The notes under the pieces: model-generated
What the model was told of the DNA's origin: nothing
What the model saw: only the letters and a program-made list of their open reading frames with translations
The model's database searches: none
Source of the DNA: a virus
Taxonomy: Duplodnaviria; Heunggongvirae; Uroviricota; Caudoviricetes
Virus record (IMG/VR): IMGVR_UViG_646311924_000020
DNA: 43,730 bases
Strand: one strand, 5' to 3'
Program-made: the position numbers and the translations under genes
Shown: one piece after another, positions 15,103-20,194 of the stretch
How the letters are laid out: each line of letters starts with the position of its first letter
Position numbering within the stretch: the stretch's first letter is position 1

Positions 15103-15301
15103 CTTCTTCCGCCTTAGCCACTTTTTGCTTCGTTGCGGTTTCTTCAGGGGTTTTTACCCAGCCTTTTTTCAGGTGAGATTTAACTTCTTCGTCATCAACA
15201 ATGATGTAATCGACAGCAAACTGACCACAGGTGATCATGTTGCCCGACTTATAGAGCATTGAACCGCCCCGGGTTTCCTGGAGAGTGTTTTATCTGTGAA
15301 C

Positions 15302-16192
15302 TCAGGCTGCCAGATCATCGTTTCCGATGGAAGCATAATAAGCTTTTTCTGCTTCTGCCGGAGGAGTATGGCCCAGCCTTCCCAGCAATCGTCGATTGTT
15401 ATACCAGTCCACCCACGTTAGTGTGGCCAGTTCCACTTCTGCACGGTTTTTCCAGCTCTTACGGTGTATTACCTCCGCTTTGTAAAGACCATTGATGCTC
15501 TCAGCCATCGCGTTGTCATACGAGTCGCCTGTACTCCCTGTTGATGCCAGTAATCCGGCTTCTTTTAGTCGCTCCGTATAGGCCAGTGACACATACTGAG
15601 AGCCTTTATCGCTGTGATGGATGGTGCCAGACGGACGACGGGCCCACAACGCCTGCTCCAGCGCATCCAGCACGAATGTCGTTTCCATAGACGATGAGAC
15701 CCGCCACCCCACGATGTATCCGGCAAACACATCAATGATAAACGCCACATAGACGAAGCCCTGCCATGTGCTGACGTAAGTAAAATCAGCCACCCACAGC
15801 TGGTCAGGTCGTTCTGCCACGAACTGACGGTTTACGCGGTCGCCTGCGGCAACGGCTTTCCGGCTGATGGTCGTACGGACCTTTTTACCCCGGAGAACAC
15901 CGGCAAGTCCCATAACCGCCATGAGACGTGCCACTGTACATCTGGCCACCCTGATTCCTTCCCGTAACAACTGACGCCAGACTTTACGCACACCGTACAC
16001 CTGATGATTTTCATCGTATACGCGCTGTATCTCTCTCTTCAGCCAGTCGTCGTGCTGCGCACGGGCACTGCGTTTATCCGGATGATGTCGCTGTTGCTGA
16101 CAATGGTAATACGTTGACGGGGCAATATGCAGTTCGCTGCATACCGGTCCGACCCCGTACTGCTCACGCAGCTTATCCAGCAGTGGCATCAT
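15302..16192 (-). CDS. IS629-like transposase OrfB (DDE integrase domain)
   Basis: 296 aa with the IS3-family catalytic region (VADFTYV..., [25 protein letters not shown]). Confidence 0.9.
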
Positions 16193-16515
16193 TTTTTCCA
16201 GAGGCGGTCGAACTCCGCCTTCGCAAAATAAGCGGAAGCCTGGCGAAGGATATCGTTACTGCGGCGCAGTTCACGATTTTCACGTTCCAGCTCTTTCAGA
16301 CGCTGACGTTCAGCGCTGGTGAGCCCACCATCACCGCCCCCGGTATCCCGCTCATGCTGGCGAACCCAGACACGCAGAGTCTCCGGCGTACAGCCAATCT
16401 TTGGGGCAATGGAACAAATTGCCGCCCACTGTGAGTCATATTCATCCTGACTTTCCAGAACCATACGAATCGCCCGCTGACGGACTTCGGGGGAAAAACG
16501 AGTATTTTTAGTCAT
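16189..16515 (-). CDS. IS629-like transposase OrfA (HTH)
   Basis: 108 aa [57 protein letters not shown]...; overlaps OrfB by 4 nt (frameshift-coupled arrangement). Confidence 0.9.
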
Positions 16516-16595
16516 CCTGTTTACCTCTTTCTCAGGGAGTTTAGTCTCCAGGATTTCCGGGGCGGTTCACATTGTTCGTGCCATTGTCTTCTCCC

Positions 16596-16618
16596 AATAA
16601 AAATGGGGCCGAAGCCCC
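16596..16618 (-). terminator. intrinsic terminator after coat gene
   Basis: Minus-strand GGGGC-UUCG-GCCCC hairpin (plus 16605-16618) followed by AUUUUUAUU, immediately after the coat stop codon. Confidence 0.5.
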
Positions 16619-16625
16619 ACCAAAA

Positions 16626-17879
16626 TTACTGCCCGGCAATAACGATGCCCGTATATTCAGGAACAAGTACAGAGCAACCGTACAGAGTGGTGAAACGAGC
16701 AGTGGTTACGCCTTTGATGTGGTCGAAGGCGTAAGACATGATCAGCGTAGCGCCCTGCTCGGTGGTTGCTGTCATTACCTGTGGACCCTGACCAGTCGGG
16801 AACGCCAGTTTGCCGTACATCAGCTCAACAGAACCATCAGCCCAGAACAGGTTAGCAGGTGCTGCGTTCTTGTTGAGAATGGTGATTGCTGCTGATGCTG
16901 CCGGTTTGGCATCGACGTTTGCATATGGACGACTCGCAACATCGGTATTTTCAACAGGGAGAATCTTTGGAGAGATTGTTACGGTAGTTCCGCTAACAGC
17001 CAGAACACGGAATACCTGCGGTTGCCCGGTGGTATCTTTTGTGATCTGGTGTACGGAATTCACACCGGCAATGGTGAACGCATCACCAACCTGCAAGCCA
17101 GATGCAGATACCGTAATAGTCCCCTGTCGGTTATCAACTGGCATACCATTTGAATCTTTCGCTTCAACCTTGTGTTCAGGTTGGCCTGATACTGTCAAGG
17201 ATTCAGCGCTTCCTTTCGGTAATCGACCAGAAATATCGGTCTTGTAGCTATCAAAGGAAGCAACCGGAGGGATCTGCGCTTTTTCGTATGCTGTCAGGGT
17301 TGCGCCCTGAGCGTAGGCACGGTGACCAAGCTCGCCAGCAAGGTCTTTGTAGTTGAAGGGGTTCCAGAAAGAGCGACGGTTGATACCCTGCGGTACACCA
17401 ATCGCCGTCATGGTGGCATCAATACCTGCCGCACAGTTCCACAAATCACGGCCCTGTGAACCTGTGGTTGAGTCAGCCATCGTGATCACGTTAGTAGCAC
17501 GCTGCGTGACCATGGAAATCAGGTCAGAGTCAATCTGTGCAGCAAGGCGCATACCTGCGGCTCGACCAGCTTCAGTTTTATGTTCCGGGTCACGCATTTC
17601 ACGCGCATCCAGAGTGTACAGAATGTTTTTCGGCTCCTTGAACACAGAAGGAACAAGGCGCTGAACCAGTGCTGTTGGCGTTTTGCCGCTGAGGTCTAGG
17701 CCTTCCTCAATATTCATGTGGTAATGCTGCGGACGATACAGAACATCACCTGCTCGCTGCATTGCTGTATCACCGGAACGGAATTTTTTAGCGTTACGGG
17801 AAACTACGCAGGCGGCCTCAAAGCCTTCAACGTAGTTTTCGAACATGATTTCAAGGTCTTTTGCTAATTGGTTAGCCAT
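16626..17879 (-). CDS. major capsid (coat) protein, P22-like
   Basis: 417 aa; position after scaffold gene; C-terminal stretches (GDAFTIAGV, RPYANVDAKPAASAAITILN, NLFWADGSVELMY) parallel the recalled P22 coat pattern. Confidence 0.8.
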   Translation of the reverse strand: MANQLAKDLEIMFENYVEGFEAACVVSRNAKKFRSGDTAMQRAGDVLYRPQHYHMNIEEGLDLSGKTPTALVQRLVPSVFKEPKNILYTLDAREMRDPEHKTEAGRAAGMRLAAQIDSDLISMVTQRATNVITMADSTTGSQGRDLWNCAAGIDATMTAIGVPQGINRRSFWNPFNYKDLAGELGHRAYAQGATLTAYEKAQIPPVASFDSYKTDISGRLPKGSAESLTVSGQPEHKVEAKDSNGMPVDNRQGTITVSASGLQVGDAFTIAGVNSVHQITKDTTGQPQVFRVLAVSGTTVTISPKILPVENTDVASRPYANVDAKPAASAAITILNKNAAPANLFWADGSVELMYGKLAFPTGQGPQVMTATTEQGATLIMSYAFDHIKGVTTARFTTLYGCSVLVPEYTGIVIAGQ

Positions 17880-18492
17880 GCTTAATGCTCCGATAGGTTA
17901 TTTTTTTGCCTTTTTAGCGGCGAAATACGGCGTCCAGTCACCAGTTTCCAGCGCCTTGGCTTTCAATTTGCCGAGGTTGTTGATTACTGCGCCGTTGCTC
18001 CCCTTAACTGTCGGGGTTGTGGCTGCCGTGGTTTTTGCTTTTGGCATGATTCTGGCCTTCGATTCGATACGTTCCAGCAGACGACCAATTGCTACGGGGT
18101 TGGTAGCTTCTGCCAGTTGCTTGCGCAGTTCAGCGTTGCGACCGAGTGCCAGAACAACGATTTCCGGCTTCTCTGACTCAAACAGGATCGCGTTTTGTGT
18201 CTCGATGGGGATTTCCTCGAGTACGGCCTGTTCTGCTTCCTGATAGCCAGGAACTTTGAGAGCCTTAACACGTTGCTGATATTTGGATAATCGCTCTTGA
18301 TAGGCAGCCTGAAGCTCCTGCTCCTTCTGCTTGCGAGCCATCTCCTGTTGCTGGTACTTGCCGTTATCCTCTGCCCACTTAGCCATGCGTTGCTGGTAGA
18401 TTTCTTCATCGAAACCGATGTCCTCATCATCCAGTTTTTGAACCGCCCCGGAAATCCTGGAGACTAAACTCCCTGAGAAAGAGGTAAACAGG

Positions 18493-18819
18493 ATGACTAA
18501 AAATACTCGTTTTTCCCCCGAAGTCCGTCAGCGGGCGATTCGTATGGTTCTGGAAAGTCAGGATGAATATGACTCACAGTGGGCGGCAATTTGTTCCATT
18601 GCCCCAAAGATTGGCTGTACGCCGGAGACTCTGCGTGTCTGGGTTCGCCAGCATGAGCGGGATACCGGGGGCGGTGATGGTGGGCTCACCAGCGCTGAAC
18701 GTCAGCGTCTGAAAGAGCTGGAACGTGAAAATCGTGAACTGCGCCGCAGTAACGATATCCTTCGCCAGGCTTCCGCTTATTTTGCGAAGGCGGAGTTCGA
18801 CCGCCTCTGGAAAAAATGA
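18493..18819 (+). CDS. IS629-like transposase OrfA
   Basis: Identical 108 aa product to copy A OrfA. Confidence 0.9.
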
Positions 18820-19706
18820 TGCCACTGCTGGATAAGCTGCGTGAGCAGTACGGGGTCGGACCGGTATGCAGCGAACTGCATATTGCCCCGTCAACGTATT
18901 ACCATTGTCAGCAACAGCGACATCATCCGGATAAACGCAGTGCCCGTGCGCAGCACGACGACTGGCTGAAGAGAGAGATACAGCGCGTATACGATGAAAA
19001 TCATCAGGTGTACGGTGTGCGTAAAGTCTGGCGTCAGTTGTTACGGGAAGGAATCAGGGTGGCCAGATGTACAGTGGCACGTCTCATGGCGGTTATGGGA
19101 CTTGCCGGTGTTCTCCGGGGTAAAAAGGTCCGTACGACCATCAGCCGGAAAGCCGTTGCCGCAGGCGACCGCGTAAACCGTCAGTTCGTGGCAGAACGAC
19201 CTGACCAGCTGTGGGTGGCTGATTTTACTTACGTCAGCACATGGCAGGGCTTCGTCTATGTGGCGTTTATCATTGATGTGTTTGCCGGATACATCGTGGG
19301 GTGGCGGGTCTCATCGTCTATGGAAACGACATTCGTGCTGGATGCGCTGGAGCAGGCGTTGTGGGCCCGTCGTCCGTCTGGCACCATCCATCACAGCGAT
19401 AAAGGCTCTCAGTATGTGTCACTGGCCTATACGGAGCGACTAAAAGAAGCCGGATTACTGGCATCAACAGGGAGTACAGGCGACTCGTATGACAACGCGA
19501 TGGCTGAGAGCATCAATGGTCTTTACAAAGCGGAGGTAATACACCGTAAGAGCTGGAAAAACCGTGCAGAAGTGGAACTGGCCACACTAACGTGGGTGGA
19601 CTGGTATAACAATCGACGATTGCTGGGAAGGCTGGGCCATACTCCTCCGGCAGAAGCAGAAAAAGCTTATTATGCTTCCATCGGAAACGATGATCTGGCA
19701 GCCTGA
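18816..19706 (+). CDS. IS629-like transposase OrfB
   Basis: Identical 296 aa product to copy A OrfB. Confidence 0.9.
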
Positions 19707-20194
19707 GTTCACAGATAAAACACTCTCCAGGAAACCCGGGGCGGTTCATTTGGCATTCGCGGTGGTTGAGTGATTACCGGCTGCTGCTCGACGGGTTTCT
19801 GAGACTGACGCATCAGCTCTTTCAGCTCGCGGTCTTTCTCTTTAATCGTCTTGCGCAGGTGTTTTACCAGTCCATGCTCTGCGCCATCTTCGCTGGTTGG
19901 CGAATCCAGCTTTTCGTCACCAAAGTAGAATTCCTGTTCTGATTCGTCGTCATCAGTTTCAGTAGCTTCCTCTGCATCATTGCCGGAGGACTCACTGCCA
20001 TCTTCTGTTTCGACTTCTTCAGCCAGTTCGACATCATCAGGAATCTGCTCTGACGCGTCGGTTTCGATTTCAACTTCTGGTGTGTTTTCTGCCATCTGGT
20101 CCATTTGTTACCCCTGTTTACTCGATGTTCAGCCCATCGGAAGGCAATAGGGTGCCAGGCCTCATAAAGACAGCCATTGCACGTTATGGGTTAA

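Follow-up and report, generated by a model that had tools for sequence, protein, structure and literature searches.

Two inverted IS629/IS1203 copies around the coat gene of a P22-like prophage

Do two inverted insertion sequences (ISs) on either side of a phage coat gene form a unit that can move or flip, or did they arrive separately? This question was raised by the virus record IMGVR_UViG_646311924_000020 (Caudoviricetes), whose 43,730 nucleotides constitute the whole stretch analyzed here (the window), and in which two IS629-like copies, A and B, bracket the coat gene between positions 15260 and 19748. An earlier note, made from the letters of the window, had read the arrangement as a composite-transposon-like cassette and as a substrate for homologous inversion or composite mobilization of the capsid gene. 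We consider it very probable that the copies represent two independent, recent, and strain-specific insertions of IS629 (IS1203) in the head region of a resident P22-like prophage, and no evidence contradicting this explanation was found among the analyses made.

The two IS copies and their target sites

A repeat finder applied to the whole 43.7-kb window returned a single inverted pair (15260-16569 and 18439-19748), with 1310-nt arms of 100% complementarity and an 1869-nt spacer, and no other long repeat. A perfect inverted repeat of 1310 nt is beyond chance, and the coordinates and spacing of the two inverted copies of equal length, described earlier as 1.87 kb apart, were reproduced. The copies, their parts, the 3-bp duplications, and the bracketed segment are listed below (ORF, open reading frame; IRL and IRR, left and right terminal repeats; aa, amino acids).

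15260..16569, minus strand: IS629/IS1203 copy A of 1310 bp, whose outer end (15260) is IRR and whose inner end (16569) is IRL
16189..16515, minus strand: orfA of copy A, 108 aa, HTH_Tnp_1 (ORF list and domain search)
15302..16192, minus strand: orfB of copy A, 296 aa, HTH_21 and rve DDE integrase core (ORF list and domain search)
16118..16234, minus strand: ALIL pseudoknot (RF01497), a frameshift-stimulating element, where orfA and orfB of copy A overlap
18439..19748, plus strand: IS629/IS1203 copy B of 1310 bp, whose inner end (18439) is IRL and whose outer end (19748) is IRR
18493-18819, 18816-19706, and 18774-18890, plus strand: orfA, orfB, and ALIL pseudoknot of copy B, respectively (ORFs, domains, and Rfam)
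15257..15259, no strand: left CAT duplication of copy A, read directly
16570..16572, no strand: right CAT duplication of copy A, on the minus strand codon 5 (ATG) of a split 62-codon ORF
18436..18438, no strand: left TTT duplication of copy B (flank reading and sister comparison)
19749..19751, no strand: right TTT duplication of copy B (flank reading and sister comparison)
16570..18438, minus strand: bracketed 1869-bp 'cassette' in native orientation, with codons 1-5 of the small ORF, the intact coat gene, and the scaffold 3' part

Flank-only queries recovered the closest sister strains, which a broad search with the IS included had overlooked in IS-rich O111 genomes. The flanks showed near-100% identity to six complete genomes (SD134209, 05-3004, 08-4455, 08-4347, 02-3334, and 2013C-4081), which are O111:H8 strains or unserotyped relatives, and the spacing between the flanking matches was 2114 bp in all six, equal to 4740 - 2 x 1310 - 2 x 3. 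The prophage of SD134209 (L004, 41,105 bp, no IS) served as the IS-free reference. When each IS and one 3-bp copy were taken out, the window corresponded to SD134209 base for base at both sites; across 41.1 kb, the two differed by 9 single-nucleotide polymorphisms and one 1-bp indel. The 1869-bp cassette was 100% identical to SD134209 15257-17125, collinear and in the same orientation. Because IS removal exactly restores the IS-free sister sequence, both insertions were simple, independent, and recent, and no inversion or deletion has occurred, the latter as the earlier note had stated.

Read directly, the flanks were ...AGAGCAT/IS-A/CATTGTT... for copy A and ...CCAGTTTT/IS-B/TTTGGCA... for copy B; the longer junctions were ...TTATAGAGCAT/TGAACCGCCCC...GGGGCGGTTCA/CATTGTTCG... 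and ...CATCCAGTTTT/TGAACCGCCCC...GGGGCGGTTCA/TTTGGCATT..., respectively. A TTT beside a T-run is by itself weak evidence of a duplication, and it is the IS-free sister sequence that decides the case: site B of SD134209 reads CAGTTTTGGC, with 4 T, and the window has 4+3 T (TTTT+TTT). The CAT and TTT duplications are real because the flanks match and the sister has each target, including the single CAT of site A, only once. The earlier statement that each copy keeps its own matching duplication (CAT/CAT and TTT/TTT) therefore stood, both when the flanks were re-read for mismatches and when they were compared with the sister strain.

Junction-spanning queries of 300 nt were compared with 5,426 complete RefSeq Escherichia coli genomes. 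Among the matches listed, junction A was absent and junction B was truly present in none; the lone match to junction B, in strain 7-55 62A, proved to come from another IS site of the scaffolding gene, 321 bp away in IS-free coordinates. The ORF fusing the scaffolding gene to the IS gave no match in an exact-product look-up. As far as these collections show, both insertions are strain-specific.

The identity of the element was consistent across several kinds of evidence. The IS ends (TGAACCGCCCCGG... and ...CCGGGGCGGTTCA) have the form TG...CA, and IRL and IRR agree at 22 of their first 25 positions. In both copies, orfA and orfB overlap at an A6 run, and the ALIL pseudoknot RF01497 was detected at this overlap with 121.5 bits (Rfam gathering score, 50), an arrangement of the kind associated with -1 frameshifting in the IS3 family, and such a frameshift is predicted here. 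The IS3-family transposase domains PF01527, PF13276, and PF00665 were present, and orfB of copy B, which is identical to that of copy A, scored 316 bits against NF033516 (IS3 family transposase; NCBIfam cut-off, 160). The IS was 100% or 99.92% identical to copies from O111:H8 genomes that carry the RefSeq annotation 'IS3-like element IS1203 family transposase' and 99.8% identical to IS copies of O157 Stx phages, near-identity being judged against these RefSeq-annotated IS1203 copies. Size, TG...CA ends, overlapping ORFs, DDE and helix-turn-helix domains, 3-bp duplications, and near-identity were all as in IS629/IS1203 of the IS3 family. IS1203 is an isoform of IS629 first described in O111:H- (PMC3271280; PMC6602927). 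On these features, the element is classified as a complete IS3-family IS of the IS629/IS1203 type, for which IS1203 is the more exact name; the earlier designation as IS629-like agrees with the domains, the ALIL and NF033516 matches, and the identity to annotated IS1203 copies.

Recurrent IS1203 insertion in the prophage

The IS1203 copies of nine prophage versions (the window and eight others) were all placed on the IS-free reference, which yielded 14 mapped sites, nearly all with 3-bp duplications. Only one site was common to several strains (four), and this was presumably inherited by descent; the independent insertion in the scaffolding gene of 7-55 62A is another of the 14. A fifteenth site is represented, by annotation only, by the IS1203 copy that splits the coat gene of O111:H8 strain TW05614 (NZ_CP077436.1 1987659-1990841), a further independent insertion within the same 1.9 kb. 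A target hotspot in the scaffolding gene was considered and rejected: with ~15 sites over ~70 genes, approximately two same-gene coincidences are expected by rough arithmetic.

Inverted pairs were also found in other versions of the prophage. Strain 2013C-4081 (L006 1112-39688) carries four IS1203 copies in the prophage, of which two are inverted and lie 574 bp apart around a 420-bp gene; one of its copies has an apparent 2-bp, not 3-bp, flank overlap. Further inverted pairs are separated by 448 bp in 08-4455 and by 23 kb in 14614. In the assembled genomes of the four strains with inverted IS1203 pairs, none of the intervening segments was inverted, as all four strains aligned along one strand of the IS-free reference and had matched duplications. 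Because IS1203 enters this prophage often, inverted pairs arise by chance, and those that bracket a gene are a recurrent by-product of dense IS insertion, with no special construction around the capsid gene.

Some copies were accompanied by altered flanks. In 02-3334 (L009 1005-2314), the IS1203 copy at the site common with three other strains has lost its left prophage flank, abuts a C-terminally truncated integrase gene, and has unmatched flanks (TCA vs GTG); this is an IS-adjacent deletion, the other known fate of such insertions, from the common site into the integrase gene, by which the int-proximal end of the prophage was removed. In 7-55 62A (L003 17087-18396), the flanks of one copy are unmatched (TTC vs CTT) and lie 368 bp apart on the reference (21737 vs 22106), which suggests that, close to the small-terminase region, sequence was either deleted beside the IS or replaced locally.

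This behavior corresponds to known IS629/IS1203 polymorphism in prophages of enterohaemorrhagic E. coli (EHEC), with the same element, host group (O111:H8), prophage preference, 3-bp duplications, and gene inactivation. In O157, 62% of IS629 copies are in prophages, and phage-borne sites vary strongly among strains (PMC3271280); both IS629 and IS1203 are amplified in O111:H8, which carries iee, the IS-excision enhancer gene, on an SpLE1-like element (PMC9397093). The strain-to-strain variability of the phage-borne sites observed here is as reported for O157 (PMC3271280) and O111:H- (PMC6602927). The difference from these known polymorphisms is none in kind, lying only in the absence of these two sites from the 5,426 genomes searched.

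The interrupted head module

The genes around the two copies, all on the minus strand, are as follows.

20195-22393, minus strand: P22-type portal (PF16510)
19749-20104 and 17898-18438, minus strand: scaffolding gene, split (PF09306)
19749..20104, minus strand: 5' part of the scaffolding gene, ~118 codons, whose start coincides with the scaffold start in SD134209
17898..18438, minus strand: 3' part of the scaffolding gene, separated from the start by copy B (PF09306 positions 147-293 of 303)
16626..17879, minus strand: P22-type major capsid (coat) gene, intact, 417 aa (PF11651 full length, E = 1.3e-76)
16570-16584 and 15083-15259, minus strand: 62-codon ORF, split (orthologue of WP_001444886.1)
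14641-15102, minus strand: gp4 (PF11650)
13213-14631, minus strand: gp10 (PF11134)

The order portal, scaffold, coat, gp4, gp10 is that of a P22-like (Lederbergvirus) head module and is syntenic with CUS-3. The host element, which adjoins dacD, is a P22-like (CUS-3-like) 41-kb prophage such as EHEC O111:H8 strains carry. The head order with a small ORF between coat and gp4 is common to CUS-3 and Sf101 (Lederbergvirus), and the IS-free part of 14000-21000 showed 98% and 96% nucleotide identity to them, respectively. Unlike these phages, the module in the window is broken by two ISs and has an extra HNH/NUMOD4 gene after gp10.

Copy B lies ~118 codons into the 297-codon scaffolding gene, which is intact in SD134209 (894 nt, L004 16585-17478). 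The reading frame of the 5' part now continues into the IS, with its stop at 19709 (ORF 19709-20104), and the 162-aa C-terminal ORF that remains on the other side (17898-18386) has no evident Shine-Dalgarno sequence before its ATG. In the 62-codon ORF that directly follows the coat gene, copy A is inserted behind codon 5; the remainder of this ORF overlaps the start of gp4. The same ORF is intact in SD134209 (L004 15083-15271) and is present in CUS-3 too. Besides the coat gene and the scaffold 3' fragment named in the earlier note, the bracketed segment thus contains codons 1-5 of the 62-codon ORF (16570-16584), which that note had overlooked.

In the mechanism that we propose, two separate, recent copy-out-paste-in transpositions of IS1203 into the O111:H8-type E. 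coli prophage, whose order and timing we infer, each generated their own 3-bp duplication. Copy B splits the scaffolding gene and copy A the small ORF between coat and gp4, the latter also separating the coat gene by 1.3 kb of IS from the head-completion genes of the same orientation (gp4, gp10, and later genes). Scaffolding protein is essential in P22. Since the scaffolding gene is split, procapsid building would be lost, and the prophage is very likely defective unless the ISs are removed, e.g., by the IS-excision enhancer reported in this serotype, a reversal that is conceivable. Both the inverted orientation and the spacing of 1.87 kb are incidental, with the pair forming a passive substrate for RecA-dependent inversion that has no function as a unit.

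Several other features of the prophage were recorded. A free-standing NUMOD4 + HNH_3 endonuclease gene (12658-13191, minus strand; 177 aa) is located between gp10 and the next tail gene, at a position where CUS-3 has no gene, and it is included in the span over which the alignments of 14614 and 7-55 62A break (reference ~11966-12251 to 13532). The gene resembles a homing-endonuclease insertion among the head-completion genes. Genes for tRNA-Thr(TGT) and tRNA-Asn(GTT) lie at 27875-28030 (minus strand), with the Q antiterminator on one side and the lysis cassette on the other, and are likewise annotated in sister strains. Relative to SD134209, where scaffold and coat are uninterrupted and the Rha-type gene is annotated as intact, the window has also lost 1 bp from a T-run (ATTTCT to ATTCT) at ~26174, within a Rha-family regulator gene (~25691-26214, minus strand). 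The deletion shifts the frame of this gene after codon 15, and constitutes a second, IS-independent lesion of the prophage.

Alternative readings of the inverted pair

In shape, the arrangement fits a composite transposon, in that two identical, complete ISs with intact transposase genes surround a 1.87-kb segment, and compound transposons formed from copy-out-paste-in ISs exist, e.g., Tn6330 (bioRxiv 10.1101/2023.06.07.543989). Tn6330 (ISApl1-mcr-1-ISApl1) likewise has a short passenger between two identical ISs. The window pair differs from units of this type in lacking a common outer duplication (CAT on the left vs TTT on the right, each IS with its own pair) and a second location, and in having as its passenger native prophage DNA in its native order and place; moreover, the ISs of Tn6330 are directly repeated and those of the window inverted. 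Two flanking IS copies were thus present, and a common outer duplication and multiple genomic contexts were not. The cassette was single-copy in the 17 listed genomes with at least 99.9% identity and never occurred outside a P22-like head module. The plasmid collection contained one cassette match (92% identity), in a 39-kb record with P22-type coat and scaffold genes annotated under the match, and no IS-flanked copy of the cassette. In addition, since orfA starts near 16515 on the minus strand in copy A and at 18493 on the plus strand in copy B, the IRLs face inward (16569 and 18439) and both outer ends are IRR (15260 and 19748). Copy-out-paste-in transposition normally joins IRL to IRR, giving an abutted left-right junction (bioRxiv 10.1101/2023.06.07.543989), which a unit with IRR at both ends would not produce, even if IS629 transposase might still be able to act on such a unit. 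The resemblance to a composite transposon is therefore one of shape only, arrival as a unit is largely refuted, and a functional composite transposon that came as such or could move the capsid gene is scarcely credible; the composite-transposon reading of the earlier note was not supported. That the second copy was made from the first by intramolecular replicative transposition, with inversion between the copies, might be suggested by two identical, inverted copies lying close together, but this mechanism would invert the segment and split the duplications; here the segment keeps its native orientation, and the direct duplications match at either copy. It was ruled out by the collinearity and the matched duplications, and its probability is next to nil. 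An assembly artifact, with one or both copies being a misplaced multicopy repeat, could be imagined for an IS found in at least 40 matched pieces in 262 records, and at 39-40 places or more in O111 records. Against this, both copies are full-length and the 3 bp at each site, present once in the sister, are duplicated exactly, which an assembler would not create, and complete long-read sister genomes have similar insertions throughout this prophage; we thus regard an artifact as hardly conceivable.

The capacity for inversion is a separate matter. With 1310-nt arms of 100% complementarity, the pair formally qualifies as a substrate for homologous inversion, as had been noted; perfect inverted repeats of 1.3 kb at a distance of 1.9 kb suit homologous recombination and are an adequate substrate for it, and minority isomers could escape a consensus assembly. 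An invertible switch, in which RecA would flip the coat cassette in the population with a regulatory effect, is nevertheless highly improbable, because the inverted isomer was seen in 0 of the 4 assemblies with inverted IS1203 pairs in this prophage, and because the prophage would be non-functional in either orientation given its split scaffolding gene, so that flipping would have no evident phenotype. Another reading concerns the IS-excision enhancer, which has been reported in O111:H8 on an SpLE1-like element and can excise IS3-family members, restoring genes (PMC9397093). The ISs might then act as a reversible lock, comparable to the IS600/lacZ delayed-lactose phenotype of O121:H19, with precise iee-mediated excision of copy B, and of copy A too, restoring the scaffold and the unbroken head-gene array and the prophage cycling between dormant and particle-forming states; we regard this as very unlikely. 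In a lesser variant of the lock, the coat cassette may flip at a measurable frequency in culture. The reading that we prefer, two independent insertions in a prophage thereby very likely disabled, is subject to two reservations. The two sites are closer than average (P ~0.09 for a distance of <=1.87 kb in 41 kb, by our own arithmetic), and a mild local-hopping bias between them may have been at work; the loss of viability is deduced from the role of the scaffold in P22.

IS629/IS1203 insertion polymorphism is an already known phenomenon, routine in the EHEC O111 lineage; as strain-specific markers of the O111:H8 lineage, the two sites have little weight beyond strain typing. The insertions would explain a lack of particles from this P22-like prophage. 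As a small descriptive addition, a 41-kb prophage is presented with 14 mapped independent IS1203 insertions in 9 close genomes (plus one annotated) and with IS-adjacent deletions. The case illustrates the fast degradation of prophages by IS629-type elements in EHEC, a behavior already documented for O157.

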